A stretch of DNA of 64,000 nt from Candidatus Omnitrophota bacterium. GTDB lineage: Bacteria; Omnitrophota; Gorgyraeia; Zapsychrales; JBDRMG01. How positions within the stretch are numbered: position 1 is the stretch's first letter; each line of letters opens with the position of its first letter. The notes below the pieces were generated by a model. It had not been told where the DNA came from and ran no database searches. It saw nothing but the letters and a program-made list of their open reading frames with translations. The position numbers were made by a program, and so were the translations under genes. Positions 9,754 through 49,378 of this stretch are shown here, piece by piece. The DNA lies in contig JBDRMG010000008.1 in NCBI GenBank assembly GCA_043812495.1, forward strand, positions 1,516 through 65,515. The letters are read 5' to 3'.

Positions 9754-9945
9754 TTCTTCTTCGCTCAAATGTTTCGTCTCCCTTCGGTCGACTGCACGTT
9801 TGAGCTTCGAAGAATAAATTCTGCCGAAGAAGAATGCTCTACGAAGCCAAACGCGAAGGACCCCGATGATATATCGGGGACGAAGCATTTTGGCGTAGTA
9901 GAGCACTATTCCTTTTCAATTCTTTCCATAAGACATAGTTACTTT

Positions 9946-10188
9946 ATGTTCATCGTCTACATCATCACAAGTTTAAAAGACCCTTCTAAACATTACGTTG
10001 GCTTTACGAAAGACTTAGATAGACGTCTTATAGCCCATAATGCTCGAAAATCACTCTTTTCTAGAAAGTACTCTCCCTGGAAGATCGAATCTTATATTAC
10101 CTTTACCGATGAGAGGAAAGCTATAGCATTTGAGAAGTACCTTAAGAAAGGCTCTGGCCACGCCTTCCTTACGAAACACCTTATCTAA
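9946..10188 (+). CDS. Small GIY-YIG nuclease superfamily protein (COG2827-like)
   Basis: MFIVYIITS...HYVGFTKDLDRRLIAHN...FTDERKAIAFEKYLK matches GIY-YIG plus the downstream conserved Arg/Glu. The longer ORF from 9769 overlaps the ssrA flank, so the start at 9946 is preferred. Confidence 0.65.
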   Translation: MFIVYIITSLKDPSKHYVGFTKDLDRRLIAHNARKSLFSRKYSPWKIESYITFTDERKAIAFEKYLKKGSGHAFLTKHLI

Positions 10189-10395
10189 TCTACATCGCTC
10201 AAACAATTTGATTTCTATAAGGTTACAGCAAATTAATTTTAAGAAAATACATTCCACTTCCCTCCCTCTTCGCAAAAAAATCACACCCAGATTCTTAATT
10301 TTCGATATATAATTGAAGGAACTTTTTAGAACTAATATTGGTCTAAATATATAGATATCAAATTAAAAGTCTTATTTCCAAAGGATCCTCAGAAT

Positions 10396-13300
10396 ATGCT
10401 TGAGAAATTTGTACAATATTTTGTCAAACGCCATCTGGTGACCAATCTCATTTTTCTCACAGTCTTTGTCGGGGGAATTTTCTCTTGGCAACAGATCAAG
10501 AAAGAAGAGATGCCGGATGTGACCTTTGACCGGGTAAGTATTTCCGCAAGCTATCCGGGCGCAACCGCCGAAGAGGTCGAACATTTTGTCACCCGCCCTA
10601 TCGAAGAAGCCGTTGAAGGTTTAGACGGTGTGTACCGCGTCACCAGCTCCGCAAGCGAAGGCTCCACAAACGTATCCGTTGAAATCGAGCAGGATTACCC
10701 CAATAAGGACGAAGTTATTACGGAAATCCGTAATGCTGTGTTGGATGTGGATTTACCCGAAGATGTCCGCGATGATCCTTCTGTGCATGTTTTTAAAACC
10801 ACCAAAAGGGCCATTATTGACGTGGCTCTTATTCATACCGGCGTCCATCTTTTGGATGTAAAAACTCGTCAGACTCTGCAGGAATATGGTCATTCCCTTG
10901 AGAATCAATTAGTGAATTTGCCTCAGATCAATAGCGTTAATAGATCCGGATATCTCAAAGAAGAAATTCAAATCAAGGTTGATCCTCAAAAGTTGATCGA
11001 ATACGACATTCCCTTAAGCCAGGTGATCAATGAGGTCAAGAATAATCATGTGCGCCAACCGGCCGGAAATATTGAGGCCAAAAATGAACCCAAAGTCACT
11101 TTGAATGCTCAGTTAGATGACCGGGAGAAGCTTAACAATCTGATTATCCAGGCCGGTTTTGAAGGGATGGCCATTCCTCTCAAAGACATAGCGACTGTTG
11201 AGCGGGGATTTAACCAAAACAAAGAAATTATTAAAGTTGATGGCCATGAGGCGATTATATTCAATGTCGTTAAGAACAGTTCTTATGGTATTCTTGATTC
11301 GATTCATGCCGTTGACCAATTGACTCAACAATATGCGAAACAGCAATTGTCAGGTACCCCCATCAAGATTGTCGTCTTGGATGACGAATCCATTGATGTG
11401 CGCAACCGTTTATCCATCATTGCGTATAACGGCGGAATCGGATTTACCCTTATTCTTTTGACTTTGTTTATTTTTCTCGATAAACGCTCAGGGCTTTGGG
11501 TCGGAATGGGGATTCCTTTTACGATTTGTTTCACTTTGCTTGCCGCAACCATGATCGGGTATTCCATTAATAATATCACCCTTGCCGCGGTCATCATTGT
11601 CATGGGGATGGTTGTGGACGATGCGATTGTTGTGGCTGAAAATATTTCCCGCTTACGAGCGCAAGGAGTCAGTCCTTATGAAGCAACGGTGAAGGGAACA
11701 GCCCAGGTCTTTTTACCTATCGTCGCGAGTATTCTAACGACCTGTATTGCTTTTGTGCCGTTATTCTTCTTTTCGGGCCGGTTCGGCCAGCTCAATAAGT
11801 TTATTCCGACCATCATTTTTCTGATGCTGGGTGCAAGCCTTTTTGAATCTTTAGTTATTCTGCCCGGGCATATGCTCCTTGAGCTTCCCAAATTCAATAA
11901 CCATTTCAGGAAAAAAGAAGTAAGTCTACCAATATCCAAAGCCCATTGGTTCGAGGCCGTTGAAGAGCGCTATGGCCGCTTTTTGAGCCGTGTGTTGCCG
12001 CGTAAACATTTTGTTTTTCTGGCTTTTATTATTTTGCTTGTTGCCTGCGGTTTGATCGCCAAAGCGAAAATGAAATTTAGTATGTTTCCCAACGAGGAGA
12101 CCAGAGAAGTCAGCATTTCCGCTTACGCACCTGAACAGGCAGATCGTTATGAAACAGCAGACTTAACAAGAAAGATCGAAGACGTGATTCGTCCGTTTGT
12201 TGGAAAAGAAGTCGTCGGGATCCGAACGGAGATCGCCCGCAGCCGCCGGGGAGGGGCCGTTGAGGAAAACCGATTTCGTATGAGCGTAGAGATCGTTCCC
12301 AAAGAAAAACGCAGGAAATCCGCGGATCAACTCATTGCTCTATGGAAGAAAGACATCGACCAGATCGAAGGGCTTAATAAGTTAATCATCCAAAAAAGCC
12401 GATGGGGCCAATCGAGCGGTAGCGCCATAGAGATTATCGTTCAGGAAAACGACGATGCCTTGCGGGAGAAGGCCGCAGACACGCTGGCTTCTCTTATGAA
12501 AGAAAATCCAGCCCTGATCAATGTGGAGATTGAACGTCCGATCAAAATTCCGGAATATAAAATCAGCTTGAAACGCGAGAGAGTCAAGCGGTTATCCATC
12601 AGTCCATTGGATATTTCATCGGCCTTTCGCGCGAGCCTGGAAGGAAACGTTCTCTACGAAATACCCAAAGGTGATGAGGAAATCGACGTACGCTTAACCA
12701 TTATTGATGAGGCGAAAACGGATATAGAGAATATTCTGGATGTTCCTGTTGAAAACAGGAATGATTATCTTGTTCCCTTGCGTGATGTCGTTGACATCGA
12801 AGAGACACAGACGCCCAATGCAATTTCCAGGAGAGATGCCAAACGCACAACCGCTGTGTATGCCGATATCAATCCTAAAGCCAAAAAGACGCCGCTCGAG
12901 ATTGCGGTGACACTTGAGCGGGATGTTTTTCCCAAAGTCATTGCTAAGCAGCCGACGACCACGTTGTCATTCGGCGGCGAAATCCAGGATACCAGAGAAT
13001 CCGGGGGTGATTTTAAAAACGCGATCATTCTGGTTTTGTTTTTGATCTTTGCCGTTTTGGCGGTTCTCTTTAATTCTCTGTCGCGACCTTTGATTATCAT
13101 GCTCGCCATTCCTTTTGGCTTGGTCGGCGTGATTTTGGCGTTTTTGTTGCACGGAAAGCTTCTGTTTGGATTTTTTGCGGCCATCGGGGCCTTGGGGCTG
13201 GCGGGCGTTGTCATTAATGATTCCATTGTCATGATTGCCAAGTTGGATAAGGAATTGGCAAACCGGCAGGGCAGAATCTCAAACGAAGAGATCGCCGGTA

Positions 13301-13533
13301 TTGCTCAAACGCGTTTACGCGCGGTGATCTTGACGACCGTAACAACGGTTGTCGGTGTTTTGCCCACGGCTTATGGCTTGGCAGGGTATGATGCGATGCT
13401 CTCCGAAATGATGTTGGCCCTGGCGTGGGGGCTGACTTTTGGGACATTGATTACACTTTTGCTTGTTCCGTGCATCTACAGCTTCATGGAAGATATGCGG
13501 TTTAAAATTCGACAGGTGGTGAGCGCGATATGA
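10396..13533 (+). CDS. RND-superfamily inner-membrane efflux transporter (AcrB/HAE1-like), 1045 aa
   Basis: 12-TM layout with two large periplasmic loops. Conserved TM4 region (VVDDAIVVAENI). Confidence 0.85.
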   Translation: MLEKFVQYFVKRHLVTNLIFLTVFVGGIFSWQQIKKEEMPDVTFDRVSISASYPGATAEEVEHFVTRPIEEAVEGLDGVYRVTSSASEGSTNVSVEIEQDYPNKDEVITEIRNAVLDVDLPEDVRDDPSVHVFKTTKRAIIDVALIHTGVHLLDVKTRQTLQEYGHSLENQLVNLPQINSVNRSGYLKEEIQIKVDPQKLIEYDIPLSQVINEVKNNHVRQPAGNIEAKNEPKVTLNAQLDDREKLNNLIIQAGFEGMAIPLKDIATVERGFNQNKEIIKVDGHEAIIFNVVKNSSYGILDSIHAVDQLTQQYAKQQLSGTPIKIVVLDDESIDVRNRLSIIAYNGGIGFTLILLTLFIFLDKRSGLWVGMGIPFTICFTLLAATMIGYSINNITLAAVIIVMGMVVDDAIVVAENISRLRAQGVSPYEATVKGTAQVFLPIVASILTTCIAFVPLFFFSGRFGQLNKFIPTIIFLMLGASLFESLVILPGHMLLELPKFNNHFRKKEVSLPISKAHWFEAVEERYGRFLSRVLPRKHFVFLAFIILLVACGLIAKAKMKFSMFPNEETREVSISAYAPEQADRYETADLTRKIEDVIRPFVGKEVVGIRTEIARSRRGGAVEENRFRMSVEIVPKEKRRKSADQLIALWKKDIDQIEGLNKLIIQKSRWGQSSGSAIEIIVQENDDALREKAADTLASLMKENPALINVEIERPIKIPEYKISLKRERVKRLSISPLDISSAFRASLEGNVLYEIPKGDEEIDVRLTIIDEAKTDIENILDVPVENRNDYLVPLRDVVDIEETQTPNAISRRDAKRTTAVYADINPKAKKTPLEIAVTLERDVFPKVIAKQPTTTLSFGGEIQDTRESGGDFKNAIILVLFLIFAVLAVLFNSLSRPLIIMLAIPFGLVGVILAFLLHGKLLFGFFAAIGALGLAGVVINDSIVMIAKLDKELANRQGRISNEEIAGIAQTRLRAVILTTVTTVVGVLPTAYGLAGYDAMLSEMMLALAWGLTFGTLITLLLVPCIYSFMEDMRFKIRQVVSAI

Positions 13534-14960
13534 AGAAACGGCCTCTTTTGCTAATTTTTCTTTGTGTTTTTGCGACAGCTAGCCTTGTTACTTACTCTTA
13601 TGTTTCTGCCCAAAATTCATCCGTACAACAAGAAAATGAAAAAAACCTATCTATCCAAGACTTCATTACCCTCGCGACAAAGAATGATACGGCATTTGAA
13701 GAAATTCTTATCGATGCCTTGAAGCTCAATTACCGCAAAGACCTAAACCTGCCGGCCCGTGATCTTGTTTTATCCGTTAAGGGGCAATATGATTTCTTTC
13801 TCAGCCAGGACAGGGAAGACCCGGCAGTCAGCGTATCGTTAAGCAAGCTTTTTCCCTTTACGGGAACGGAAGTCGAAACTTCTTATGGCCTTACTCCTTC
13901 GGCAAGCTCAGATTCAAGGACATCAGAATTTAACCTTCTCATTTCCCAGCCTATTGCCCAGAACGCCTTCGGGGCGGCCACGCGCCTTCAGGACAAAATT
14001 ATCGGCGTTGAAATCGATGTCATACGCTATCAAATCATAGAGGCTTATGAAGATTATTTGGCGACTTTGATTAATACTTATTACAACTGGTACTCGGCGT
14101 ATGAAAATTTAAAGATCAGCGAATCTTCCTATGAGCAAAATGAGAAACTGCTTGAGAATATGAACAAAAGGGCTGAAAGCAAGATTGCCCTGCCCGTTGA
14201 TGTCAATAAAGTCAAGCTGCTTGTTATCGGCAAGCAAGAAAATGTCATTGAGCTAGAAGAAGTTTATAAGAATTCGCTCAATCTTATTTACAAGGCTATT
14301 CGCTACGAAGGCGGTGATGAGCTGATTCCACAGGATCCGTCTGGCTTCCATTTATTTGACATTGATTTTGAGAACGATTACCAAAAGTTTAATCAAGGAA
14401 GCCGTACCTATGAAATCCTAAATCTATTAGAGAAGAAGAGCACTCTGGAAGTTAGCAAGAATGCCGACGGCTTGCTTGTCTCAACAAAACTTTTATTCGG
14501 CTATCAAGTCGAAGGCGATGAATGGCCGATCAAAAACGAAGACAATATGGTTTACGCAGGGATTTCCGTGGAATGGCCGTTTCCCGACCAAGTCGAACGG
14601 GCACAATACGAAACAGCAAAAATTGAACAAGACAAAAGACGTCTGACCAATCAAAACACCTACCTGGAGCTTTATACAACGCTTAAGAATATCCATTTAC
14701 AAATTCAAAGGGAAAAGGCCCTGATCAAGCTCGCCGATGAGAAAATCGGTTTGGCTGAAGCAGTTCTCAAAGACGAATCTCGGAACTATTCCTTTGGGAA
14801 GATTACGCTGAATGACTATATTGATGCCGTGAATAAGGTGGATACCAACAAATTCAATAAGATTCTCCATACCGTCCAGCTCAAGAAACTTCTTTTGGAA
14901 TGGCTTAGGCTAACCGATTCTCTTGTTGATAGAAGCATCCTCAAGAGCTCATCCCGTTAA
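13530..14960 (+). CDS. Outer-membrane efflux protein (TolC/OEP family)
   Basis: Signal peptide. Two OEP-like repeats with coiled-coil heptads. ATGA start overlaps the RND stop. Confidence 0.75.
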   Translation: MKKRPLLLIFLCVFATASLVTYSYVSAQNSSVQQENEKNLSIQDFITLATKNDTAFEEILIDALKLNYRKDLNLPARDLVLSVKGQYDFFLSQDREDPAVSVSLSKLFPFTGTEVETSYGLTPSASSDSRTSEFNLLISQPIAQNAFGAATRLQDKIIGVEIDVIRYQIIEAYEDYLATLINTYYNWYSAYENLKISESSYEQNEKLLENMNKRAESKIALPVDVNKVKLLVIGKQENVIELEEVYKNSLNLIYKAIRYEGGDELIPQDPSGFHLFDIDFENDYQKFNQGSRTYEILNLLEKKSTLEVSKNADGLLVSTKLLFGYQVEGDEWPIKNEDNMVYAGISVEWPFPDQVERAQYETAKIEQDKRRLTNQNTYLELYTTLKNIHLQIQREKALIKLADEKIGLAEAVLKDESRNYSFGKITLNDYIDAVNKVDTNKFNKILHTVQLKKLLLEWLRLTDSLVDRSILKSSSR

Positions 14961-15021: not shown

Positions 15022-15058
15022 TTGACAAATTCCTCAACTGAGACTATATTAGTCTCAG
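15022..15058 (+). promoter_or_regulatory. Sigma70 promoter (TTGACA-17-TATATT) with an overlapping 8 bp inverted repeat CTGAGACT-atatt-AGTCTCAG, a candidate Rrf2/NsrR operator
   Basis: Read directly. The palindrome spans the -10 element, 13 nt upstream of the Rrf2 GTG start. Confidence 0.65.
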
Positions 15059-15070: not shown

Positions 15071-15529
15071 GTGGTGAAGCTTATAACCAAGAATACAGAT
15101 TATGCCATCCGGGCTCTTGTGGCGCTGGGTCAGGTGGGCGATGATTATATATCGGCGCGCGATCTTTCTCTTAAGCAGTCCATACCCTATGAATATTTGA
15201 GAAAAATCCTGCAGGTGCTTATTGGTGATGATTTGGTGGAATCTAAGGAAGGCGGAAGCGGCGGCTTCAAGCTGAATCCCAAGGCTCTCAAAATAAAAGT
15301 GACGGATGTCATGCGTATTTTCCAGGGCGATATTCAGCTTTCCGCATGTATGTTCAGAAAGAAATTATGCCCGCATCGCGATCAGTGCGCTCTGCGGGAC
15401 AATATTCAACAGATTGAACGCTCCGTAATCAGGCAATTCGGAAATTTAACCGTTGAGATCTTGATCCAACAAACAAAGAGGAAAGGCTATGAAAAGAAAA
15501 GTGATCAAAATCGACGAAGAAAAATGTAA
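15071..15529 (+). CDS. Rrf2-family transcriptional regulator (NsrR/IscR-like, with three Cys ligands)
   Basis: N-terminal wHTH (YAIRALVAL...ISARDLS). C-x6-C-x5-C cluster (CMFRKKLCPHRDQC). GTG start. Upstream of hcp. Confidence 0.8.
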   Translation: MVKLITKNTDYAIRALVALGQVGDDYISARDLSLKQSIPYEYLRKILQVLIGDDLVESKEGGSGGFKLNPKALKIKVTDVMRIFQGDIQLSACMFRKKLCPHRDQCALRDNIQQIERSVIRQFGNLTVEILIQQTKRKGYEKKSDQNRRRKM

Positions 15530-16205
15530 CGGGTGCGGCGAGTGCATACCCGATTGTCCGGAAGGGGCCTTAAAGATCGTCGACGGAAAAGTTAAACTCA
15601 TGAGCGAATCCCTCTGCGACGGACTCGGCGCTTGTGTGGGGCGGTGCCCGGTGGGCGCATTAACTATTGAAGAAAGAGACGCCGAGGAATTTGACGAAGA
15701 AAAGGCTCAGGACAATATGGAAAAAATGCACAGCGATCCCTCTCATCAGACGTCACAAGCCCATCAGGGTTGTCCCGGGATGATGGCTCGTCAGTGGCAG
15801 GACAACAAATCGCAAGCCACCGCTACCGTCCAAGGCGGTTCCGCGTTACGCCAGTGGCCGATTCAGCTGAAATTATTGAATCCGCACGCACCCTATTTTC
15901 AGGACGCGGAGTTAGTGATTGCGGCCGATTGCGTTCCGTTCAGTTTTGCCAATTTCCACGAACGGTTTCTCAAAGGTAAAATCTTAATCATTTTCTGCCC
16001 CAAGCTTGATTTTGCCCATGAGGAGTATGTCCAAAAATTAACGGAAATCATCAAAAGCAACAACATTAAATCCCTGACGACCGTCCATATGGAAGTTCCC
16101 TGTTGTAACGGCACAACGGTCTTGGCCGAAGAGGCCCTAAAAAGTTCCGGGAAAAACTTAATTCTCAAAGATTACACCATATCTCTTCAGGGGGAGATTA
16201 TCTAA
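15489..16205 (+). CDS. 2x[4Fe-4S] ferredoxin-domain protein with a C-terminal Cys-containing domain of unknown function
   Basis: [12 protein letters not shown] and [12 protein letters not shown] ferredoxin motifs. C-terminal CPKL...VPCCNG. Confidence 0.6.
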
Positions 16206-16215: not shown

Positions 16216-17853
16216 ATGAGCATGTTTTGTAACCAATGCCAGGAAACAGCAAAGAATACAGGATGCACCGTCAAAGGAATATGCGGAAAGGATGAGCGTA
16301 CATCCAATTTGATGGATTTGCTCACTTTTACTCTAACGGGTTTATCGCTTTATGCGGAGGAATCCGAAAAGCCGTTAGACCGTAAGTATGGTATTTTTGT
16401 CACGCAAGCACTGTTTGCCTCAATCACCAATGTCAATTTTGACGAAGAGAGGATTATCGCACTTATCCAGAAATCGTTGTTTTTGAGGGAAGAGCTTAAA
16501 AATCAAATCCTATGGACTCATAAAAATGAGCTTCTCCCGCCAGCCACGTGGACTGCTAAGTCGAAAGACGAATTCTTAAAGAAAGCAAAAGAAGTCAGCC
16601 CTATGTCTTTTGATCAAGATGAAGATGCGCGCTCCTTAAAATCCTTAATTCTCTATGGCTTAAGAGGGATAGCCGCATATGCAGATCACGCGGCTATCCT
16701 TGGGTTTTATAATGACCAAATTTTCTCCTTTTTCTTTAAGGCCTTAGCTGCCTTGCCCAAAACAATTCCCATCGATGAATTAACGAAAATGGTCCTTGAA
16801 ACCGGGGATATTGCCGTTAAGGCCATGGCTCTTTTGGACGAAGCCAACACATCGACCTACGGCCACCCGGAAATCACAAAAGTCAATATCGGCGTGCGCA
16901 AAAATCCAGGAATACTAATTTCCGGTCATGACTTAAAAGATATGGAAGAGCTCTTGAAGCAGACCGAAGGAACGGGTGTGGATGTGTACACGCACAGCGA
17001 GATGCTTCCGGCCAATTATTATCCGGCCTTTAAAAAGTATAAACACTTTATAAGCAATTACGGAAGCTCATGGTGGAATCAAAACAAAGAATTTGAATCC
17101 TTCCATGGGCCGATTTTAATGACAACCAATTGTATTACACCGGTCAAAGAATCCTACAAGCATCGTATTTTCTCAACGGGAATGGCCGGTTATCCGGGCG
17201 TCAAACATATCCTTGATCGAGAGGACGGAAAACAAAAAGATTTCTCAGAAATCATTGCGCTGGCAAAGACTTGTCCACCGCCTCAAGAATTAGAACAGGG
17301 AGAAATCGTCGGAGGATTTGCCCATCATCAAGTTTTGCAATTGGCGGATGACATTGTTCGGGCCGTTCAATCGGGGGCTATTAAACGGTTTGTCGTCATG
17401 GCCGGTTGCGATGGCCGTCACGCAACGAGAAATTATTTTTCTGAGGTTGCTCAAGGATTGCCCAAAGATGCGGTGATTTTAACCGCAGGATGCGCCAAGT
17501 ATCGTTATAATAAACTTAATTTGGGACATATCAACGGTATCCCGAGGGTCCTGGACGCCGGACAATGCAATGATTCTTATTCCCTAGCCCTTATTGCTTT
17601 AAAATTAAAAGAAGTGTTTGGTGTTAACGATATTAATGAGTTACCCATTTCTTTTGATATTGCGTGGTATGAGCAAAAGGCGGTCTGCGTACTTTTGGCT
17701 TTGCTCTCGCTGGGTTTTAAAGGAATCCGATTGGGTCCGACATTACCGGCCTTTGTATCGCCAAATGTATTGAAGGTTTTAGTAGAAAAGTTTGACATAA
17801 AACCCATACATAATGCTCGAGAGGACGTCGAGGCTATAATGGCGGGACGTTAA
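16216..17853 (+). CDS. hcp: Hydroxylamine reductase / hybrid-cluster protein
   Basis: N-terminal [23 protein letters not shown] Cys motif typical of Hcp. Length 545 aa. Conserved hybrid-cluster Cys/His/Glu positions towards the C-terminus. Confidence 0.85.
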
Positions 17854-17932
17854 GTTTTTTTCTAAAGGAAGTTATCTGGCCGAAAGAGGCGGCCGTACAA
17901 GTACCCATAGGATCAAAACAACAAGGAGGTTA

Positions 17933-18397
17933 TTGATGAAACGGATTTTTATTATTGGTTTAGCTATTTTGTTTATTAGCGGTTTCCCTCCTTTTATCAT
18001 GGCACAGAATGATGACAGTCCAATGAAGGATCAGGGCATGATGATGGTCCCTATGACGAGCGGCGCAGGTATGATGGGTGAACAGGGCATGATGGGGCAG
18101 AAGAAGATAAAAGGAATGCACCCGATGGCCGGCATGATGATGAAGGCCATGACGGAAAAAACCCTTGTCCCAACCGAAGATGGAGGCGTTATCGTTTTAG
18201 TGGGCAATAAGTTAACGAAATATGACAAGAATCTTAATCTTGTCAAGGAAGTCGAAATAAAAGTCGATACCGAAGCCATGCGTCAGAATATGATGGATAT
18301 GATAAAAAACTGCCCCATGATGAAGGGCATGATGATGAATGAAAGCGCAACATCCGATCAGCCCGGTGATGAAGGGGCGCCGACAACCGGCAAATAA
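17933..18397 (+). CDS. Secreted methionine-rich protein (Met-rich repeats; possible Cu(I)/Ag(I)-binding or oxidant-sink periplasmic protein)
   Basis: Signal peptide. About 25% Met in clusters (GMMMVPM, GAGMMGEQGMMGQ, MHPMAGMMMKAM, CPMMKGMMMNE). Strong RBS AAGGAGG. Confidence 0.6.
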   Translation: MMKRIFIIGLAILFISGFPPFIMAQNDDSPMKDQGMMMVPMTSGAGMMGEQGMMGQKKIKGMHPMAGMMMKAMTEKTLVPTEDGGVIVLVGNKLTKYDKNLNLVKEVEIKVDTEAMRQNMMDMIKNCPMMKGMMMNESATSDQPGDEGAPTTGK

Positions 18398-18414
18398 TAA
18401 GAATTATAGCGATC

Positions 18415-18443
18415 CCTGCCTGTGAACAGGCAGGGATTTTTTT
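18415..18443 (+). terminator. Rho-independent terminator (CCCTGCCTG-tgaa-CAGGCAGGG followed by T7)
   Basis: Read directly after the Met-rich gene stop. Confidence 0.8.
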
Positions 18444-18735: not shown

Positions 18736-19479
18736 ATGAAGAAGTTCATGACCTGGCAGGTCGGTTTAGGGTTGGGTTTGATCGCACTTTCGGCAACGGT
18801 TTATTTCATTCATTACCTTATTTTCAGAGACGCCCACCATATTTTTATTTATCTCGTTGGAGATATTGCCTTTGTATTCTTAGAAGTTTTAATGGTGGCG
18901 CTCGTGATTCACGAATTGCTTATCCATCGGGAAAAGCAGTCTTTGCTTCATAAACTTAACATGGTCATCGGAGTATTTTTTAGTGAAGTCGGAACGCATT
19001 TGCTCAAAACCATAACAGGTTTTATGGCTGAATCTTTTCAGGCGGATAAAGATTTGATTGTAACCAAGGACTGGTCAGAAAAAGATTTTTACAAGAAGAC
19101 CAAGCAATTTAGAGACTATGCTTTTCCGATCAAAAGCGAACACGGCGATTTGATATCCTTAAGAGATTTTTTGATAGAAAAAAGGCCGCTTTTGGTCAAT
19201 CTCTTGGAAAATCCGAATCTTTTAGAGCATGAATCTTTCACGGATTGCCTATGGGCGGTGTTCCATTTGGCCGAAGAACTCTCCTTCAGAAAAGATTTCG
19301 GACAATTACCCGAAACAGATTATCAGCACCTCTCCGGAGACATTCAAAGAGTCTATAGGGTCCTGATTGTCCAGTGGTTGTCCTATATGAAACATCTCAA
19401 GGACGATTATCCGTATCTGTTTTCCCTTGCCGCGAGGAGAAATCCTTTTGACAGAAATGCTTCGATTGTTATTCATTAA
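18736..19479 (+). CDS. Hypothetical membrane-anchored protein (2 N-terminal TM helices plus a soluble domain)
   Basis: ORF with RBS-like GGGGG upstream. I recognise no motif. Confidence 0.5.
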   Translation: MKKFMTWQVGLGLGLIALSATVYFIHYLIFRDAHHIFIYLVGDIAFVFLEVLMVALVIHELLIHREKQSLLHKLNMVIGVFFSEVGTHLLKTITGFMAESFQADKDLIVTKDWSEKDFYKKTKQFRDYAFPIKSEHGDLISLRDFLIEKRPLLVNLLENPNLLEHESFTDCLWAVFHLAEELSFRKDFGQLPETDYQHLSGDIQRVYRVLIVQWLSYMKHLKDDYPYLFSLAARRNPFDRNASIVIH

Positions 19480-19708: not shown

Positions 19709-20293
19709 ATGACAAACATTTTTCTAGCCTTTATTCCCATTTTTGTCGCGGTTGACGCCATCGGCGTTCTGCCGATTTTTATTAGCCTGACACAGGGATA
19801 CCAGCCTGAAGAAAAACAAAAAGTGATCCGACAATCTTTGTATACGGCTGTGGCCCTTGCTTTTGGTTTCATTTTCTTGGGAAAAATAATCTTTCGTTTT
19901 CTCGGTATTACCATGAGCGATTTTATGGTGGCGGGAGGATTAATTCTTTTTTGTATCGCTATACTCGATTTGCTGAGACCCGGCAAACAAAGACGCATGC
20001 CTCCCAAAGAACTGGGTGCTGTTCCTATCGGAACACCTTTGATTGTGGGACCGGCGGTTCTGACGACATCTCTGATGATTGTCGACCAATATGGCGTGAC
20101 GGCGACCTTGATTTCCGTTTTGTGCAATATTTTCTTAGCCGGGCTGATTTTTCAAATGTCCGAAAAGCTTATAAAATTTTTGGGTCAGGCCGGCGCAAGA
20201 GCTTTATCCAAAGTCACCATGCTTCTTCTGGCTGCGATTGCTGTGATGATGATTCGTAAAGGGATCTTCGGCATCTTGAATGCCGGCGGTTAG
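19709..20293 (+). CDS. MarC-family (UPF0056) integral membrane protein
   Basis: Six-TM profile. N-terminal FIPIFVAVDAIGVLPIF is typical of the MarC family. Confidence 0.7.
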   Translation: MTNIFLAFIPIFVAVDAIGVLPIFISLTQGYQPEEKQKVIRQSLYTAVALAFGFIFLGKIIFRFLGITMSDFMVAGGLILFCIAILDLLRPGKQRRMPPKELGAVPIGTPLIVGPAVLTTSLMIVDQYGVTATLISVLCNIFLAGLIFQMSEKLIKFLGQAGARALSKVTMLLLAAIAVMMIRKGIFGILNAGG

Positions 20294-20436: not shown

Positions 20437-21501
20437 ATGGTTCGACCTATCAAGATGATCTCCAAAACGCTTGGGTTACCGCCCGGAACACCTGTTTTGG
20501 TTGGAAATGAAAGAATCGGAAAAGCAAAAATTACGGTTTTTGACTATGATGCGGCCAATGTCGAGGAGAAAGAAGCCAAAACCGTCGAAGAATGCTTTCC
20601 CTTTAAGGACAAGCCCAGTGTGACCTGGATCAATGTGGATGGAATCGGAGATGTGGAGACGATTGAAAAAGTGAATGAGCATTTCGGCATTCATCCTCTT
20701 GTCTTGGAAGACATTCTGAACACTACACAGCGTCCGAAAATGGAAGACTTCGAGGATTATATTTTTATTGTCCTGAAGATGATCCATTTTGAAGGCAAGA
20801 CAGATGAAGTTATTTCCGAGCAAGTCTGTTTGATCGTTGGTCCAAATTATGTGATTTCTTTTCAAGAAACTGAAGGGGATCTCTTTGATCTTATACGGGA
20901 CCGTATCCGGCAAAACAAGGGCCGTATTAGAAAAATGGGTGCGGATTATTTGGCTTATTCCCTCATTGATGCGATCGTGGATGGTTATTTTGTCATCCTT
21001 GAGAAACAAGGCGATGAGATCGAGAATTTGGAAGAAGAATTACTCAAAGGAGCCGAGCCCAAGATGCCTCAGGAGATTCATCAACTGAAACGGGAAATGA
21101 TTTTTTTGCGCAAACACATCTGGCCGTTGCGTGAAGTGATTAACGGGCTTCAGAAAAGCGAAGTCGAACTCATCAAGAAGGCGACAAGTTTTTATTTACG
21201 CGATGTCTATGATCACACAATTCAGATCATTGACACGGTTGAATCATTTCGCGATATGCTCTCCGGCATGCTCGATATTTATCTTTCCAGCATCAGCAAC
21301 CGCATGAACGAAGTCATGAAAGTCTTAACGATTATAGCCACCATCTTTATTCCGCTGACCTTCATCGCCGGTGTTTATGGGATGAATTTTAAATATATGC
21401 CTGAGCTAGAGTGGCGCTGGGGTTATTTTGGTGCCTTAGGCCTGATGGCTCTTGTCGGGATTCTCATGCTCAATTTTTTCAGAAGGAAAAAGTGGTTGTA
21501 G
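20437..21501 (+). CDS. corA: CorA-family Mg2+/Co2+ transporter
   Basis: C-terminal two TM helices with YGMNF signature (GVYGMNFKYMPEL). Cytoplasmic N-terminal domain. Confidence 0.85.
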   Translation: MVRPIKMISKTLGLPPGTPVLVGNERIGKAKITVFDYDAANVEEKEAKTVEECFPFKDKPSVTWINVDGIGDVETIEKVNEHFGIHPLVLEDILNTTQRPKMEDFEDYIFIVLKMIHFEGKTDEVISEQVCLIVGPNYVISFQETEGDLFDLIRDRIRQNKGRIRKMGADYLAYSLIDAIVDGYFVILEKQGDEIENLEEELLKGAEPKMPQEIHQLKREMIFLRKHIWPLREVINGLQKSEVELIKKATSFYLRDVYDHTIQIIDTVESFRDMLSGMLDIYLSSISNRMNEVMKVLTIIATIFIPLTFIAGVYGMNFKYMPELEWRWGYFGALGLMALVGILMLNFFRRKKWL

Positions 21502-42732: not shown

Positions 42733-42762
42733 TTGACATACCCCAAGGGGGTATGCTATACA
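42733..42762 (+). promoter_or_regulatory. Sigma70 promoter (TTGACA-18-TATACA) with the GC-rich palindrome ATACCCC-aag-GGGGTAT in the spacer; candidate CsoR operator
   Basis: Read directly. The palindrome type matches known CsoR operators (ATACCC...GGGTAT-like). Lies 23 nt upstream of the csoR start. Confidence 0.65.
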
Positions 42763-42784
42763 AGAAGGGAAGGAGGATTGAGCA

Positions 42785-43072
42785 ATGAAAAAACACAGCT
42801 ACCCGGACCATGCCGCGCAGATTGTCTCTTTGAGGCGCATCGAAGGGCAGATCCGGGGGATTCAGAAAATGATTGAGGACAAACGGTATTGCGTCGATGT
42901 TCTCATCCAGCTTCGTTCTGTCGTTAAAGCCATTGGTAGCGTGAGAGAGAAAATATTACGCCGGCATTTGGAACATTGCGTCAAAGATGCCCTTCAAGGA
43001 AAATCCGAAGCCGAGCGGCAGAAGAAAATTGACGAGGTTATCAACCTGTTAAGCAGACACAACGGAGATTGA
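42785..43072 (+). CDS. csoR: CsoR/RcnR-family (DUF156) metal-sensing transcriptional repressor
   Basis: LRRIEGQIRGIQKMIEDKRYCVDVLIQL...HLEHCV. The x-Y-x-C ... H ... C arrangement fits a Cu(I)-type CsoR. Confidence 0.8.
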   Translation: MKKHSYPDHAAQIVSLRRIEGQIRGIQKMIEDKRYCVDVLIQLRSVVKAIGSVREKILRRHLEHCVKDALQGKSEAERQKKIDEVINLLSRHNGD

Positions 43073-43073
43073 G

Positions 43074-44339
43074 ATGAAGAATAAATTATTGCTTCCTATC
43101 TTTTTATGCATGGGCGTTCTTTTTGTTTCTTCGCTGTCCTTCGCTCAAGGGGAGCAACAAGATATTTTAGGAGGATTTGTTCAAGAAGCGCTGGAACATA
43201 ATCCTCGAATCCAAGCAGCGCTTAATCGCTGGGAAGCTGCTCAGTATGCTATCGGACGTGTCCAAGGCCTTCCTGACCCTGTCGCTAGCTACGGGTATTT
43301 CGGGGAAAACGTTCAAACGAAGACAGGTCCCCAAGAGCAGAAATTCGGTTTTTCTCAAAAGATTCCATTCCCGGGTAAGCTCAATCTCAAAGGAAAAGCT
43401 CAAGGTAAACAAGCGCAAATATTGAAGGAACAATATGAAGGAACCCGGCGCGAAGTGATCAAAGAGGTCAAGCTAACCTTTTATGATCTTTATTGGATTG
43501 ATCAAGCTATCCGGGTAACGGATGAAGAAAAGGGCATCCTCGAAAACCTTGAGAGGGTTTCCCGCCGAAAGTATGAAACCAATCTGGCGAATCAACAAGA
43601 TGTCATTAAAGCCCAGGTCGAATTGTCTAAACTCGTCGATAAATTGTACCTTCTTAAGCAAAATCGGCAAAGTCTTCAAGCAAAAATGAAAAGTCTTCTC
43701 AACCGAACAGAGAATTTATCACTCGAAAATATTTCTCAGATTAAGGAACGGGATTACTCGTATACTCTCGATACATTAATGGCTTGGGCTGAGGAAACTA
43801 GACCGGAATTGTTGAGCGCGAATCTGGCGACGGAAAAAGCCCAATTTGAGAAATCATTGGCCCGCATGGATTACCTTCCCGATTTTACGTTTGGCGTAGA
43901 ATATATCGATATCGGCGGAGGCACAACGGCGCTTGCGGATGATGGCCAAGATGCCTGGATGGGTATGGTTTCCGTAAACATTCCTCTTTGGTTTGGCCGA
44001 TTAAATACGCAGCTCAATGAAAAAAAGGCAGATTTGAGAGCCGCGCAGAATTACGCTGACAACGTTAAGAATAGCGTGACATACGAAGTGCAGGATATTC
44101 ATTTTAAAATCCTCGCTTATCAAGATATCGTCACCTTATATGAAACGACCCTTATCCCTCAGGCCCAACAGGCTTTTGATGGCGCGAAAACAGGATATGA
44201 ACGCGGCCGGATCGATTTCCTGAATTGGCTGGATGCGCAGAGAACACTTTTACAGACGTGGCTTGCCTATTATAAGGCCGTGGCGGACTATCATAAATCG
44301 ATTGCTTTCTTAGAAAGAATCGTGGGTCGGGATTTATAA
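43074..44339 (+). CDS. Outer-membrane factor of heavy-metal efflux system (CusC/CzcC-like)
   Basis: Signal peptide. Duplicated OEP repeats. ATGA overlap with the csoR stop. Confidence 0.75.
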   Translation: MKNKLLLPIFLCMGVLFVSSLSFAQGEQQDILGGFVQEALEHNPRIQAALNRWEAAQYAIGRVQGLPDPVASYGYFGENVQTKTGPQEQKFGFSQKIPFPGKLNLKGKAQGKQAQILKEQYEGTRREVIKEVKLTFYDLYWIDQAIRVTDEEKGILENLERVSRRKYETNLANQQDVIKAQVELSKLVDKLYLLKQNRQSLQAKMKSLLNRTENLSLENISQIKERDYSYTLDTLMAWAEETRPELLSANLATEKAQFEKSLARMDYLPDFTFGVEYIDIGGGTTALADDGQDAWMGMVSVNIPLWFGRLNTQLNEKKADLRAAQNYADNVKNSVTYEVQDIHFKILAYQDIVTLYETTLIPQAQQAFDGAKTGYERGRIDFLNWLDAQRTLLQTWLAYYKAVADYHKSIAFLERIVGRDL

Positions 44340-44405
44340 GTTTTTATTGATTACAATGGATCGGAAGGATAATAAGAGAATTATCATCATTTAATTTGCT
44401 TACTT

Positions 44406-44559
44406 CCCCTCGTCCGCCATCGATTTTAGCAGTGGACTCGGGGTCAATTCGGCCATGCACTTATGTTTCCGTCAATTCGATAGAATCGAATTGACGAGAC
44501 CTCGCTAAATTTTAGAAAATTAGCGGACATTATCATTCCATAAGTGCAGGCCTCATGGA
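44406..44559 (+). repeat. Modular palindromic intergenic element, copy C (longest; inner hairpin GTCAATTCGAT/ATCGAATTGAC plus inserted CGCTAAATTTT/AAAATTAGCG module)
   Basis: 5' arm 44442-44465. 3' arm 44538-44559 (CATAAGTGCAGGCCTCATgGA). Ends 14 nt before the cusB-like start. Confidence 0.85.
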
Positions 44560-44573
44560 AAGGAGTATGAACC

Positions 44574-45839
44574 ATGAAGACAAAAGTGATTGTTTTGATT
44601 TTGCTTTGCGGACTCATGACGATGGCACTCTATGGAACAAAGGCGACGGCTGAAAATCCCGAAATCAATTACTATACCTGCGGTATGCATCCCAGCGTGA
44701 AGGTATCCCTCGAAGATTATAATAGAGGAAATCAAAGTTGCCCCATTTGCCATATGAATTTGACACCGGTCTATCAAGAAGCGAGGGTCATGCCGTCGAA
44801 AAAAGAACGGAAAGTTCTTTTTTACCGAAATCCGATGAACCCGAGCATCACGTCCAAGGTCCCGGCCAAGGATGAAATGGGCATGGATTATATTCCTGTC
44901 TACGAAGAAGGGGCACAAGAGACATCGACCCCACAAGCTTACATCGAACGTGTTATGGTTAAAGCTGATCAGGCAAAGTTAGCCGGCATTCAAACAGAAC
45001 CCGTAAGAAAATATCATCTTTTCAAAGAAATCCGAACCGTTGGGACCGTGGCCTACGACCCAGAAATGGCGGTGGCACAGGATGAATTTATTTCGGCTGT
45101 AGCGACCCTGGAAAAAATTCGGCAAGGAAAAATTTCCGATATTACCGAGCGGGCCGAAGCCCTGGTGAAATCCTCAGAAAGAAAGTTGCGTCTGCTTGGA
45201 TTAAACCAGTCCCAAATCGATGAATTGGCGCAGACACGAAGCATTCAAGAAAACCTGATTCTTCCAGAGGAAAAAATGTGGGTCTACGCAGAGGTCTATG
45301 AATACGATTTGCCGTGGATCAGCGAAGGAAACAAGATTACGATGACAACGGCTAGTCTACCTGGAGAAGAATTCTACGGCGTTGTGACATCCGTCAATCC
45401 CGTTGTAAATCCGAAAACCCGCTCCGTGACTCTTCGCGCGCAAGTTGATAATCCGGATTTAAAACTTAAACCCGATATGTATGTTGATGTCGTCGTAAAA
45501 AGCATGTACAAGGGGCCGCAAGGCGAAGAGATGATCCTGGCCGTACCCAAAGAAGCTGTTTTAGATACGGGAACAAGAAAGATCGTTTGGGTCGATGACG
45601 GTAATGGAACCTATGAAGGCCGGGAAGTGATCATCGGCCCGGAAGCTATCGCCATGACAGAGAAGAAAGAAATGGAGGCCTATCCCGTTCTGCAAGGTCT
45701 TCAAGAGGGCGATCAGGTTGTCACAAAAGGAAATTTCCTGATTGATTCGCAAAGCCAGATTACGGGAGTGGCGGCTTCGGCTTACAGCGGGGCGTTGGAT
45801 TCACAAAAGGAAAAGATAGCTCCGGCGCATCAACATTGA
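44574..45839 (+). CDS. RND efflux membrane fusion protein (CusB/CzcB-like) with N-terminal metal-binding motif
   Basis: N-terminal YTCGMHP...CPICHMNL Cys/His motif, then the HlyD-like lipoyl/beta-barrel region. Confidence 0.8.
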   Translation: MKTKVIVLILLCGLMTMALYGTKATAENPEINYYTCGMHPSVKVSLEDYNRGNQSCPICHMNLTPVYQEARVMPSKKERKVLFYRNPMNPSITSKVPAKDEMGMDYIPVYEEGAQETSTPQAYIERVMVKADQAKLAGIQTEPVRKYHLFKEIRTVGTVAYDPEMAVAQDEFISAVATLEKIRQGKISDITERAEALVKSSERKLRLLGLNQSQIDELAQTRSIQENLILPEEKMWVYAEVYEYDLPWISEGNKITMTTASLPGEEFYGVVTSVNPVVNPKTRSVTLRAQVDNPDLKLKPDMYVDVVVKSMYKGPQGEEMILAVPKEAVLDTGTRKIVWVDDGNGTYEGREVIIGPEAIAMTEKKEMEAYPVLQGLQEGDQVVTKGNFLIDSQSQITGVAASAYSGALDSQKEKIAPAHQH

Positions 45840-45880
45840 TTAATAAAGAAAAGGAAATATTATAGCTGCATTTGCTTAAT

Positions 45881-45982
45881 CCCCGCCCGCCATTGATTCA
45901 GTGGCGGGCGGGGTCAATTCGGCCATGCACTTATGTTCTCCGCCATAATTCGTGGCGGATCCATAAGCGCAGGCCTCATTGA
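45881..45982 (+). repeat. Modular palindromic intergenic element, copy D (GC hairpin CCCCGCCCGCCA-ttgattcag-TGGCGGGCGGGG plus arms)
   Basis: 5' arm 45912-45935. 3' arm 45961-45982. Ends 14 nt before the ATG at 45997. Confidence 0.85.
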
Positions 45983-45996
45983 GAGAAAGAATCTTC

Positions 45997-49146: not shown

Positions 49147-49295
49147 GGATTATTTTCGCAAGAGCGCTTCTTTGCTGTGAATGATCTCCAACTCAAACTT
49201 CATAAGTTGAATGAAATGATGGACACTTTCTTTGTCGCAAGTTAGAATAATTAACTAACAACTCATTTATTGGTCTTTTCCTTATTAATGGAACA

Positions 49296-49378
49296 GTCAA
49301 TAATATTCTCTCTATACGAGAAAGAAGACCTAATATTGACTTCCACCGTTCCTTTAATAAAGAGAAAGTCAATAATAT
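49296..49378 (+). promoter_or_regulatory. Three copies of an operator-like motif (GTCAATAATAT direct at 49296 and 49368; inverted AATATTGAC at 49332)
   Basis: Read directly. The strong RBS CACAAGGAGGG follows. Confidence 0.5.

Follow-up and report, generated by a model that had tools for sequence, protein, structure and literature searches.

Copper handling in the bacterial periplasm is understood from a few proteobacterial proteins, namely CusF, CopC/PcoC, CopK, PcoE/SilE and CueP. CusF folds into an OB barrel of five strands and binds through His-Met-Met(+Trp), the motifs of PcoE and SilE use both His and Met, and the tetrathioether Cu(I) site of CopK is formed by Met28, Met38, Met44 and Met54. 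The Met-rich periplasmic proteins CusF, CopK and PcoE have been described as copper buffers or chaperones, CusF taking up periplasmic Cu(I), including that from the CopA pump, and passing it on (PMC4335983). Disordered Met-rich segments of PcoE/SilE and CueO are credited with recruiting or buffering Cu(I)/Ag(I) in the periplasm (PMC4335983; PMC11494321), and in CueO the Met-rich domains are described as recruiting Cu(I) (PMC11494321). MrpX, a protein of Azospira suillum, is co-regulated with the periplasmic methionine-sulfoxide reductase YedY/MsrP (PMC4436054).

Here we describe a Met-rich protein encoded in a 64-kb window (the whole stretch of DNA analysed). On balance, sequence comparisons lead us to favour the view that it represents a new family and binds Cu(I)/Ag(I) in the periplasm, and that in this genome it is probably made by read-through from an hcp operon. 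Its open reading frame spans exactly 17933-18397 on the + strand, with ATG 17936 as the likely start and the stop at 18397, and the product of 153 amino acids is identical to a deposited hypothetical protein from a Candidatus Omnitrophota MAG (P0001). A consensus ribosome-binding site, the Shine-Dalgarno sequence AAGGAGG (17923-17929), lies 6 nt before the ATG, and the same heptamer is enriched upstream of the homologues (28 observed against 3.3 expected). Downstream, the intrinsic terminator at 18411..18438 folds with -22.1 kcal/mol (z = -5.4), and equally good folding was seen in 0 of 200 shuffled sequences. We conclude that this is a real gene, because a consensus Shine-Dalgarno sequence and a strong terminator are joined by 92 close homologues and 1,194 cluster representatives (E ≤ 1e-3). 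No further copy of the family was found elsewhere in the 64-kb window, and a tblastn search against the PLSDB plasmids gave no match.

The gene closes what the preliminary description had called an nsrR-fdx-hcp unit (Table 1). An Rrf2-family regulator, a ferredoxin-domain protein and Hcp (819 bits) are indeed present, the last 41 nt of the Rrf2 gene being shared with the ferredoxin-domain gene, but the label nsrR is not borne out: the regulator passes the NCBIfam superfamily model rrf2_super (86 bits against a cut-off of 73) and reaches 37.3 bits against a cut-off of 182 for the NsrR equivalog NF008240. The promoter-like site before the Rrf2 gene is, from its sequence, the probable start of the transcription unit, and the palindrome over its -10 hexamer would probably serve as an Rrf2 auto-operator. 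This palindrome is unique in the window (chance expectation, 0 matches), and comparable ones stand ahead of hcp-adjoining Rrf2 genes in two other loci (L041 and L051). In the spacer between hcp and the Met-rich gene (17854..17935), the hairpin has a folding energy of -10.8 kcal/mol (z = -0.27) and shuffled sequences fold equally well; a search of these 82 nt for a promoter-like site on the + strand or an inverted repeat found none. Since the spacer thus lacks a convincing terminator or promoter and a strong terminator follows the gene, the Met-rich gene is probably read through from the Rrf2-controlled promoter and would be co-transcribed with hcp.

Table 1. Features of the hcp unit and of the Met-rich gene, in positions of the window; residue numbers are those of the Met-rich protein.
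Feature	Positions	Strand	Basis or remark
Promoter-like site (TTGACA, 17 nt spacer, TATATT) before Rrf2 gene	15022..15050	+	11/12 consensus matches
Perfect 9-3-9 palindrome CTGAGACTA-TAT-TAGTCTCAG over -10 hexamer	15038..15058		Sequence
Rrf2-family transcriptional regulator, Cys-x6-Cys-x5-Cys cluster	15071..15529	+	Pfam Rrf2 E=7.6e-26
Ferredoxin-domain protein, 2x[4Fe-4S] N-terminus and Cys-containing C-terminal part	15489..16205	+	Pfam Fer4 families
Hcp, hybrid-cluster protein (hydroxylamine reductase family)	16216..17853	+	Pfam Prismane E=3.8e-169; NCBIfam NF003658 819.5 bits
Spacer between hcp and Met-rich gene, 82 nt	17854..17935	+	Weak hairpin and U7 directly past hcp stop
Signal peptide, residues 1-23 (MKRIFIIGLAILFISGFPPFIMA)	17936..18004	+	n/h/c regions; putative cleavage site
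Met/Gly-rich segment, residues 24-72	18005..18151	+	31% Met; disorder predicted as far as about residue 59
Met-free four-stranded beta-meander, residues 73-109	18152..18262	+	Most conserved part of family
Two Met-rich helices, residues 110-136	18263..18343	+	33% Met; conserved M115, M119, M122, C126-P127-M128-M129
Acidic low-complexity tail, residues 137-153, and stop codon	18344..18397	+	Composition
Intrinsic terminator, end of unit	18411..18438	+	12-bp GC-rich stem, 4-nt loop, T7

The protein starts with a signal peptide, called by inspection, in which MKR is followed by an 18-residue hydrophobic stretch (mean Kyte-Doolittle 2.4) and by I-M-A|Q; across the family, conservation of the Ala at -1 is 90% or higher. 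These n, h and c regions, with a small residue at -1, are those of a Sec-exported periplasmic protein. The preliminary description had noted a signal peptide and clustered Met motifs, both of which we recovered (Sec-type; 10 MM, 3 MMM and 6 MxxM), and had put Met at about 25%, which overstates it: Met accounts for 26 of 153 residues (17.0%), rising to 18.6% in the mature chain if cleavage is placed, as a guess, at residue 24, and reaches 31-33% in two segments only (31% in residues 24-72, 33% in residues 110-136), with 0% in the beta core (73-109) and in the tail. Across the ORFs of the window the mean is 2.6% and the second-richest ORF has 5.8%, so that the enrichment is marked (binomial P 4e-14). 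The protein contains one His and one Cys only.

In the predicted model, pLDDT stays below 50 at residues 22-59; an MHPM motif and then a helix (63-72) follow, the helix carrying conserved Met residues (M72 93%, M68 79%, M67 78%). The beta core is modelled confidently (pLDDT 85-96), and its residues D82, G83, G84, K95, Y96, D97, L100, K104 and E105 are 94-100% conserved, with K95, D97, D82 and L100 at 98-100%. Among the residues of the two C-terminal helices, conservation amounts to 89% for C126, 85% for M115, 84% for M128, 82% for P127 and 80% for M119, and CPxx occurs downstream of the beta core in 146 of 200 family members. Specific Met positions and the CPM(M) motif are conserved in the family, the same Met positions being kept in hundreds of homologues; conservation of Met is positional, not merely compositional. 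The tail varies across the family and ends in H-x-[SA]-H-H in 45 of 223 relatives.

Queried on its own, the window protein gave no match in Pfam, NCBIfam or the PDB sequences. The family, which at 50% identity comprises 1,194 clusters (representatives, E ≤ 1e-3), was previously unnamed: neither Pfam nor NCBIfam has a model for it, and no relative whose function is known could be detected. The reading in the preliminary description would have been contradicted by a homologue characterised for some unrelated function; our searches found no characterised homologue of whatever function. The hosts are mostly Omnitrophota and other PVC bacteria; by phylum, they belong mainly to Omnitrophota, Planctomycetota and Desulfobacterota. 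Upstream of the homologues, de novo k-mer enrichment yielded only the Shine-Dalgarno and start-codon context and no regulatory motif. Some versions in the family carry the domain two or three times in tandem, P0093 and P0096 being natural tandem proteins, and there is a fusion to cytochrome c.

We then compared the gene neighbourhoods of 80 species-representative loci, at least 2.5 kb of downstream sequence being available in 66. A P-type ATPase lay within 3 kb of the family gene in 22 of the 80 loci, and in 17 of these 22 it followed that gene immediately and in the same orientation, mostly with gaps of 4-66 bp. This ATPase carries N-terminal YHS and HMBD domains, and 17 of 25 full-length copies contain CPC, YN and MxxSS, which make up the P1B-1 Cu+/Ag+ signature. 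When the 148 immediate neighbours were counted by Pfam family in an unbiased way, E1-E2_ATPase (18 hits), HMBD (15) and YHS (15) came first, the next family having 4; a Cu(I)-type P1B ATPase is the sole strongly recurrent neighbour of the family in the 80 loci. The ATPase often lies within an island that includes multicopper oxidase, MerR, TolC/RND and YHS genes. One such island recurs in L010, L014, L026, L044, L052 and L054, where the order is YHS-DUF2231-TolC-multicopper oxidase-MerR-(ICMT/DUF5676/small CCGGH peptide)-Met-rich gene-ATPase. An ATPase, multicopper oxidase or YHS gene was present within 3 kb in 24 of 80 loci (strict marker set) and the broad set was represented in 35 of 80, while about 56-70% of the 80 loci had no copper gene in the fetched flanks. 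Membership of copper islands, in the sense of recurrent operonic adjacency to the Cu(I) ATPase or to copper genes, is thus a trait of the family; the 64-kb window holds no P-type ATPase, and the window copy therefore lies outside such an island. Because the dominant neighbour is a P1B-1-type ATPase with YHS and HMBD domains, the proposal of a Cu(I)/Ag(I) binder, already made in the preliminary description, gains support across the 80 loci that is independent of composition, and because elsewhere the family often stands directly before a copper-export pump, we read the protein as a probable copper binder and not as part of the NO machinery.

Placement after hcp had struck the first observer as unusual, and so it is: hcp adjoins the Met-rich gene in the window and in 2 of the 80 loci (L041 and L051). 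The gene order differs in these two, where the Met-rich gene precedes Rrf2-hcp and is separated from them by a terminator-like hairpin and T-run of its own; in L051 it comes after a copper ATPase. Given how rare the adjacency is, and given this arrangement, we do not consider hcp linkage to be a property of the family.

The gene, its signal-peptide features and composition, the family and its conserved positions, the predicted fold and the statistics of the neighbourhoods are direct results; that the protein binds metal, by which ligands it does so, that it works with the pump and that it is co-transcribed with hcp are inferences, which may be put as follows. The mature protein, Sec-exported and 130 residues long, would most likely use thioether and thiolate ligands to bind Cu(I) and, by analogy, Ag(I) as well. 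The ion would be caught by a disordered arm at the N-terminus, rich in Met and Gly, and the folded core, a Met-free meander clamped by three amphipathic helices, would supply one or more defined sites, at which helix Met at i, i+4 and i+7 would adjoin the Cys-Pro-Met motif. In many relatives it would be made together with the Cu(I)-exporting P1B-1 ATPase and could buffer the copper delivered by the pump or hand it on, the recipient being a multicopper oxidase or an exporter of the RND/TolC kind, in the manner of CusF in E. coli. In this genome, expression would probably come by read-through from a promoter under an Fe-S-type Rrf2 repressor.

In about a quarter of the sampled species the family is wired directly to a copper pump. 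The lineages concerned, Omnitrophota, Planctomycetota and Desulfobacterota, are mostly uncultured and largely from anoxic settings, in which Cu(I) is the relevant and most toxic copper species. If binding is confirmed, the family would add a structurally new way of recognising Cu(I) through thioethers, would give a name to a common 'hypothetical protein' and could serve as a copper-stress marker for groundwater and sediment metagenomes. The placement after hcp matters only if co-regulation holds, in which case copper defence would be coupled to an Fe-S/NO sensor.

Among the described proteins, CusF offers an analogy of role. It is small, Sec-exported, uses Met ligands and is encoded with copper-export machinery, as we propose for the Met-rich protein, whose role may by analogy be the same. 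The two differ in that CusF has no Pfam, NCBIfam or PDB sequence match to the Met-rich protein, a crude search of the window for CusF-like motifs found nothing, and the predicted model has, besides a four-stranded meander, a long disordered Met arm and three helices rich in Met, which places it outside the CusF family and its OB barrel; moreover, the usual gene partner is a P1B ATPase, whereas CusF belongs to an RND operon. PcoE/SilE and the Met-rich domain of CueO have disordered Met-rich periplasmic segments comparable to residues 24-59 here. Unlike them, the Met-rich protein adds a conserved folded core and a conserved Cys and has a single His, and no sequence similarity to them was found.

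The hcp operon suggests a nitrosative-stress role, in which the protein would be a sacrificial Met sink that scavenges periplasmic reactive nitrogen, oxygen or chlorine species through Met oxidation. MrpX sets the precedent, being likewise small, secreted, Met-rich and encoded in a stress operon (PMC4436054). This explanation, which we hold to be quite unlikely, draws on the periplasmic location, on 17% Met with 31-33% in exposed or disordered segments, on the place of the gene at the end of the Rrf2-ferredoxin-hcp unit with no strong terminator between, and on adjacency to Rrf2-hcp in 3 of 81 loci against some 0.2 expected by chance, a rough estimate of our own. However, a bulk sink would not be expected to show position-specific Met conservation and a Cys-Pro-Met motif, and the dominant context of the family is copper export, with direct linkage to the copper ATPase. 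Repair by MsrPQ, which the preliminary description had offered as an option, found no counterpart: neither an Msr family nor Oxidored_molyb was among the families common to at least 2 of the 288 flanking proteins (148 at ±1 and 140 at ±2), and a crude search of the window for MsrA/B motifs found nothing, so that a sacrificial Met peptide of the MrpX/MsrP type is not supported. The arrangement in L041 and L051, described above, also speaks against the sink. Met-rich surfaces, such as those of the SRP54 M domain and Spy, have moreover been proposed to bind unfolded clients, and the flexible Met-lined helices could accordingly belong to a periplasmic stress chaperone or holdase that binds such clients and not metal ions. 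The amphipathic Met-rich helices and disordered arm of the predicted model would suit such a protein, a conserved charged beta-sheet surface (K92, K95, D97, K98, K104, E105, E107) looks like a protein-protein interface, and metal genes are absent from many loci. Yet Pfam, NCBIfam, PDB and fold searches revealed no similarity to known chaperone families, the only strongly recurrent neighbour is the copper ATPase at operonic distance, and the CPM(M)/CPMH motifs resemble CPMH, a motif in the Pfam consensus of the heavy-metal-binding HMBD domain; a holdase is thus highly improbable.

The protein might also be a divergent CopK, that is, a true homologue that, like CopK of Cupriavidus metallidurans, binds Cu(I) at a tetrathioether site and Cu(II) cooperatively. 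CopK is likewise periplasmic, Met-rich and encoded in copper islands, and it has in common with the family the hairpin motif DG..(I/V)..GN....D..L. It was the best PDB sequence match of the family profile (E=0.078), the two aligning as tsDGGvvVl.GNKL.KYD..L and TrDGtkIiMkGNEifRLDeaL; P0048 scores 25.4 bits against the gathering score of 23.8 of PF11525, and hhalign gave E=4.6e-4 over 29 columns. We nevertheless regard the similarity as marginal and such a divergent CopK as very unlikely. PF11525 is passed by 1 of 77 relatives, P0048 itself, and the window protein has no Pfam match at E ≤ 0.1; hhalign against a 14-sequence CopK alignment assigned a probability of 33%, and fold searches with the Met-rich protein did not retrieve CopK. 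M38 of CopK aligns to a conserved Met, M44 to Val and M54 to Leu, at which position 27% of members have Met; M28 lies in the Met-rich part, which is variable, and the tetrathioether set is not conserved. In addition, CopK forms a narrow Cupriavidus-type family of 16 clusters, as against more than 1,000 for the Met-rich family.

Fold comparison of the predicted beta core showed a resemblance only to single beta-propeller blades and to YmzC of B. subtilis (PDB 3kvp). An extended form of the copper-binder reading, built on the model and in our view unlikely, would make the family a single propeller-blade-like meander that self-associates, its helix Met and Cys forming rings or clusters as a copper sponge for the YHS/HMBD-type CopA pumps of anaerobic PVC bacteria and Desulfobacterota. 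In this genome the sponge would be rewired under an Fe-S Rrf2 sensor, so that buffering would come on with the Hcp signal, Fe-S damage by NO or by Cu(I) itself. Self-association is suggested because the family includes the tandem and cytochrome c-fused versions.

Lastly, we considered the other metal-related systems of the window. The CsoR-controlled cus-like system mentioned in the preliminary description does exist, as a CsoR-like gene preceded by a canonical operator, together with TolC, CusB-like and CusA genes, at 42738-50500, about 25 kb from the Met-rich gene; it provides no direct link to that gene. In the whole window the canonical CsoR operator ATACCCCAAGGGGGTAT occurs only ahead of the CsoR gene (42738-42754), and no CsoR-like operator was found within 250 bp upstream of the 80 homologues; CsoR control of the Met-rich gene was rejected. 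The RND pump that directly precedes the unit, at 10396-13533, was also discarded as a Cus-type partner: it scores 474 bits with RND_permease_2 and 267 with CusA/CzcA, both under the cut-off, which points to a pump of the multidrug type.

The Met-rich open reading frame has two candidate starts: a TTG at 17933, just 3 nt from the Shine-Dalgarno sequence, and the likelier ATG at 17936, 6 nt from it, which yields a 153-aa product (MKRIF...TTGK). P0001, deposited as a hypothetical protein from a Candidatus Omnitrophota MAG, is 100% identical to this product. By sequence, the N-terminus is built like a Sec signal peptide: MKR forms a basic n-region, 18 residues form a hydrophobic core (mean Kyte-Doolittle 2.4), and I-M-A stands at the end, before a Gln, the Ala being at least 90% conserved across the family; cleavage would take place after I-M-A. 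Methionine makes up 26 of the 153 residues (17.0%; 18.6% of the mature form, with cleavage guessed at residue 24), against a mean of 2.6% for the long ORFs of the window and 5.8% for the runner-up (binomial probability 4e-14). It is concentrated in residues 24-72 (31%) and 110-136 (33%) and absent from the core (73-109) and the tail. The figure of about 25% Met given in the preliminary description was thus too high for the whole protein and too low for its two Met-rich segments; once the percentage is corrected, the observation of a secreted Met-rich protein is real.

A single-sequence search against Pfam, NCBIfam and PDB returned no match. The protein is not an orphan: the 90%-clustered collection held 92 matches at E≤1e-3 (top non-identical homologue, E = 5.6e-31), and a profile built from 77 of them reached 1,194 cluster representatives (clustering at 50% identity), with E≤1e-10 for 1,005. 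Every named member is a 'hypothetical protein'; the Met-rich protein represents a widespread unannotated family. Its members share a signal peptide, a variable Met/Gly-rich stretch, a conserved core and an acidic tail, with the approximate core consensus MMMK.MMeKs.VATsDGGVvVL.GNKL.KYDKNLNLVKEVEIK.DMEaM.K.M..M..CPMM. Among 214 aligned members, conservation is highest in the beta-core (K95 100%, D97 99%, D82 and L100 98%, G83 97%, E105 96%) and extends to C126 (89%), P127 (82%) and individual methionines (M72 93%, M115 85%, M128 84%, M119 80%, M68 79%). It is thus the positions of the methionines that are conserved, and not their abundance alone (median Met content across the family, 16%). Of 200 members, 146 have a CPxx motif, chiefly CPMM, on the C-terminal side of the core, and 53 have an extra [C/H]PM motif (CPMM or CPMH) ahead of it. 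A C-terminal H-x-[SA]-H-H (HASHH, HESHH and similar), found in 45/223 members and absent from the window protein, may provide another metal site, for Cu(II), Ni or Zn, or serve as a tag for docking to a partner. Among the family proteins P0093-P0097, P0105, P0114 and P0164 the whole Met-helix/beta-core module is repeated in tandem, two or three times, and P0095 contains class I cytochrome c (CASCH) as a further module; this hints at an oligomeric function and perhaps at redox coupling.

AlphaFold2, fed with the family alignment, predicted disorder for residues 22-59 (pLDDT <50), followed by a helix (63-72), an antiparallel four-stranded meander at 76-107 (pLDDT 85-96) and helices at 112-125 and 127-136; an 83-residue trimmed model gave the same architecture (pTM 0.51). 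The conserved methionines are regularly spaced within the helices (64, 68 and 72 in the N-terminal one; 115, 119 and 122, that is i, i+4, i+7, in the next) and, judged by sequence, would therefore share one helical face. The protein thus combines an export signal and a Met-rich disordered arm with conserved Met/Cys helices round a Met-free sheet.

We then analysed the neighbours of the family by scanning one genome per GTDB species, which confirmed 110 loci and left 80 for analysis (by record title, 46 Omnitrophota, 18 labelled Planctomycetia/Planctomycetales/Pirellulales, 6 Phycisphaerae-type, 5 Desulfobacterota-type, 2 Fibrobacterota, 1 Auribacterota and 2 unclassified); ORFs were called and all neighbours clustered. 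The top cluster is a P-type ATPase of ~758 aa (23 loci), located within 3 kb of the Met-rich gene in 22 loci. In 17 it comes directly after that gene, with the same orientation; 66 loci have downstream sequence of 2.5 kb or more. The gaps to the ATPases in this position range from -87 to 66 bp and are mostly 4-22 bp. By Pfam, the ATPases carry E1-E2_ATPase with N-terminal YHS and HMBD domains, and 17 of 25 full-length ones have CPC, YN and MxxSS together, the signature of Cu+/Ag+ exporters among P1B-ATPases. An unbiased Pfam census of 148 proteins at ±1 is led by E1-E2_ATPase (18), HMBD (15) and YHS (15), followed by DUF5676 with just 4; recurrent families at ±2 include ICMT/PEMT (4), ATPase (3) and MerR (2). 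Six loci (L010, L014, L026, L044, L052, L054) share a copper island in the order YHS protein, DUF2231, TolC, multicopper oxidase, MerR, (ICMT, DUF5676 or a small CCGGH peptide), Met-rich gene, ATPase. In many species, then, the family is operonically linked to a Cu(I) ATPase. In 24/80 loci there is a gene for an ATPase, a multicopper oxidase or a YHS protein within 3 kb, and a broader marker set places a metal-related gene anywhere in the fetched flanks in 35/80; loci devoid of metal markers have mixed neighbours (Mla-like ABC systems, sensor proteins, unknowns). Small membrane peptides of 35-85 aa with Gly/Cys-run ends (GGGCCGGH, GGCCCGS) and no Pfam match recur in copper islands between MerR or ATPase and the Met-rich gene (the preceding gene in L010, L044 and L052; L051 2100-2210). 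The second commonest cluster, c2 (20/80 loci, e.g. L005 191-877, L020, L029, L055), is a ~228-aa secreted or membrane sensor-like protein lacking a Pfam match, often multi-copy and adjoining histidine kinases; its frequency may simply mirror its abundance in Omnitrophota genomes.

In the window, Pfam and NCBIfam place an Rrf2-family regulator, a ferredoxin-domain protein and Hcp (NF003658, 819 bits) 5' of the Met-rich gene, recovering the fdx and hcp genes described earlier; the label nsrR is unverified, since the regulator scores 37 bits versus 182 with the NsrR equivalog model and matches at the level of the Rrf2 family only. The palindrome over the -10 hexamer of the Rrf2 gene occurs once in the window; comparable ones precede the hcp-adjoining Rrf2 genes of L041 (TTTAAACTGAT-n11-ATCAGTTTAAA) and L051 (ATATGATACTA-ATA-TAGTATCATAT), and it probably serves this Rrf2 subfamily as its auto-operator. 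The start of the ferredoxin-domain gene precedes the Rrf2 stop by 41 nt (15489-15529), which suggests that the genes overlap and may be translationally coupled; the top NCBIfam match of its product is HgcB-like, far short of the cut-off (42 bits vs 99). The 82 nt that separate the hcp stop (17853) from the Met-rich gene contained no promoter-like site on the + strand and no inverted repeat of at least 8 nt, just a weak hairpin followed by U7 (-10.8 kcal/mol, z = -0.27, same as shuffles). The terminator 3' of the Met-rich gene was equalled by 0/200 shuffles. The simplest reading would be a four-gene unit, Rrf2-ferredoxin-hcp-Met-rich, ending after the Met-rich gene, with presumed read-through from hcp.

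Coordinates of features in the window
Feature	Position	Location	Detail
RND permease, multidrug-like	10396-13533	upstream of Rrf2-hcp unit	
Outer-membrane factor	13530-14960	beside RND permease	
Promoter-like site	15022-15050	5' of Rrf2 gene	TTGACA, 17 nt, TATATT; consensus match
Perfect 9-3-9 palindrome	15038-15058	over -10 hexamer 5' of Rrf2 gene	CTGAGACTA-TAT-TAGTCTCAG
Shine-Dalgarno of Met-rich gene	17923-17929	+ strand	AAGGAGG; from sequence
Met-rich ORF	17933-18397	+ strand	ORF calling
Strong terminator	18411-18438	3' of Met-rich gene	-22.1 kcal/mol, z = -5.4
MarC	19709-20293	downstream of Met-rich gene	synteny in L001, L036
CorA	20437-21501	downstream of Met-rich gene	synteny in L060
CsoR operator	42738-42754	overlapped by TTGACA	ATACCCCAAGGGGGTAT; arrangement 42734-43072
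CsoR-like ORF	42785-43072	after operator	95 aa
TolC-like	43074	directly after CsoR-like ORF	
CusB-like	44574	after TolC-like	CGMHP metal-binding motif
CusA/CzcA-family RND	45979		1,021 bits
SaoE/SO_0444-like permease	49538	after CusA/CzcA-family RND	

The placement after hcp is unusual, as had been remarked: Hcp adjoins the Met-rich gene in just 2 of the 80 other loci, L041 and L051. In both, the order is Met-rich gene, Rrf2, hcp; the Met-rich gene has its own hairpin and T-run on its 3' side, and the Rrf2 gene has a promoter region to itself, which bears a palindrome. In L051 the Met-rich gene comes after genes for a copper ATPase and a small membrane peptide rich in Cys. The closest syntenic relatives (L001, L036, L060) have the downstream genes of the window, MarC or CorA, and lack the hcp operon. 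The hcp link of the Met-rich gene is a local peculiarity. Counting the window, hcp is adjacent in 3/81 loci, above a rough expectation of ~0.2, and a loose neighbourhood relationship of copper islands with Rrf2-hcp may therefore exist, though neither as an operon nor across the family. In L041 (370-470), the Met-rich gene has an in-frame TAG at the very position of the Gln that follows signal-peptide cleavage in relatives such as P0076; the gene may be a pseudogene, or the TAG may be recoded or reflect an error in sequencing.

The copper-binding interpretation has solid comparative support in the operonic Cu(I) ATPase neighbours. The Met-rich protein would bind Cu(I), and probably Ag(I), through thioether and thiolate ligands, and would either buffer copper in the periplasm or accept what the pump expels there, from where the copper might pass to a multicopper oxidase or to export by RND/TolC. 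Regulators of this Rrf2 type use Fe-S clusters, known to be damaged by NO, and Cu(I) under anoxia also damages such clusters. The gene is here probably driven by the Rrf2-controlled promoter, and co-expression with hcp would, speculatively, therefore be sensible. The proposed buffer or acceptor role matches those described for CusF, CopK and PcoE (PMC4335983) and for the Met-rich domains of CueO (PMC11494321). A sacrificial Met sink like MrpX, the Met-rich periplasmic peptide of Azospira suillum (PMC4436054), repaired by MsrPQ as the preliminary description also proposed, is a rival reading; its defining reductase context is absent from the recurrent ±1 and ±2 neighbour families and was not found in a motif search of the window, and it leaves the positional conservation unexplained. 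A chaperone role finds its sole support in the Met-rich amphipathic helices.

True homology to CopK, the Cupriavidus periplasmic copper protein (PF11525), is unproven. CopK is the top PDB sequence match of the family profile (E=0.078), the alignment spanning the hairpin motif (family tsDGGvvVl.GNKL.KYD..L versus CopK TrDGtkIiMkGNEifRLDeaL), and 1 of 77 members passed the Pfam CopK threshold. A CopK family alignment was made from 14 of 16 clusters found; its profile-profile comparison with hhalign gave a probability of 33% over 29 columns, and of the four methionines reported as the Cu(I) ligands of CopK (literature cited in PMC4335983), one alone faces a conserved Met of the family. CopK was never listed in fold searches. 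We therefore did not file the protein under CopK; the two have at most a short hairpin motif in common. The function of the family would be of a known kind, in proteins unrelated, as far as detectable, to characterised families.

Directly past the terminator, 18736-19479 encodes a 247-aa membrane protein with no Pfam/NCBIfam family and no counterpart near the homologues. A search of the 64-kb window for a P-type ATPase motif found none. The RND pump just upstream was considered as a CusA-like partner and proved multidrug-like instead; no periplasmic adaptor gene lies directly upstream of the permease/outer-membrane factor pair (9769-14960), that place being taken by a GIY-YIG-domain ORF (9769-10188). 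The CsoR-controlled cus-like system noted earlier is present, as a set of CsoR, TolC, CusB-like, CusA and SaoE-like genes; it lies 25 kb from the Met-rich gene, and its operator was found at that promoter only, in what looks like a textbook CsoR arrangement.
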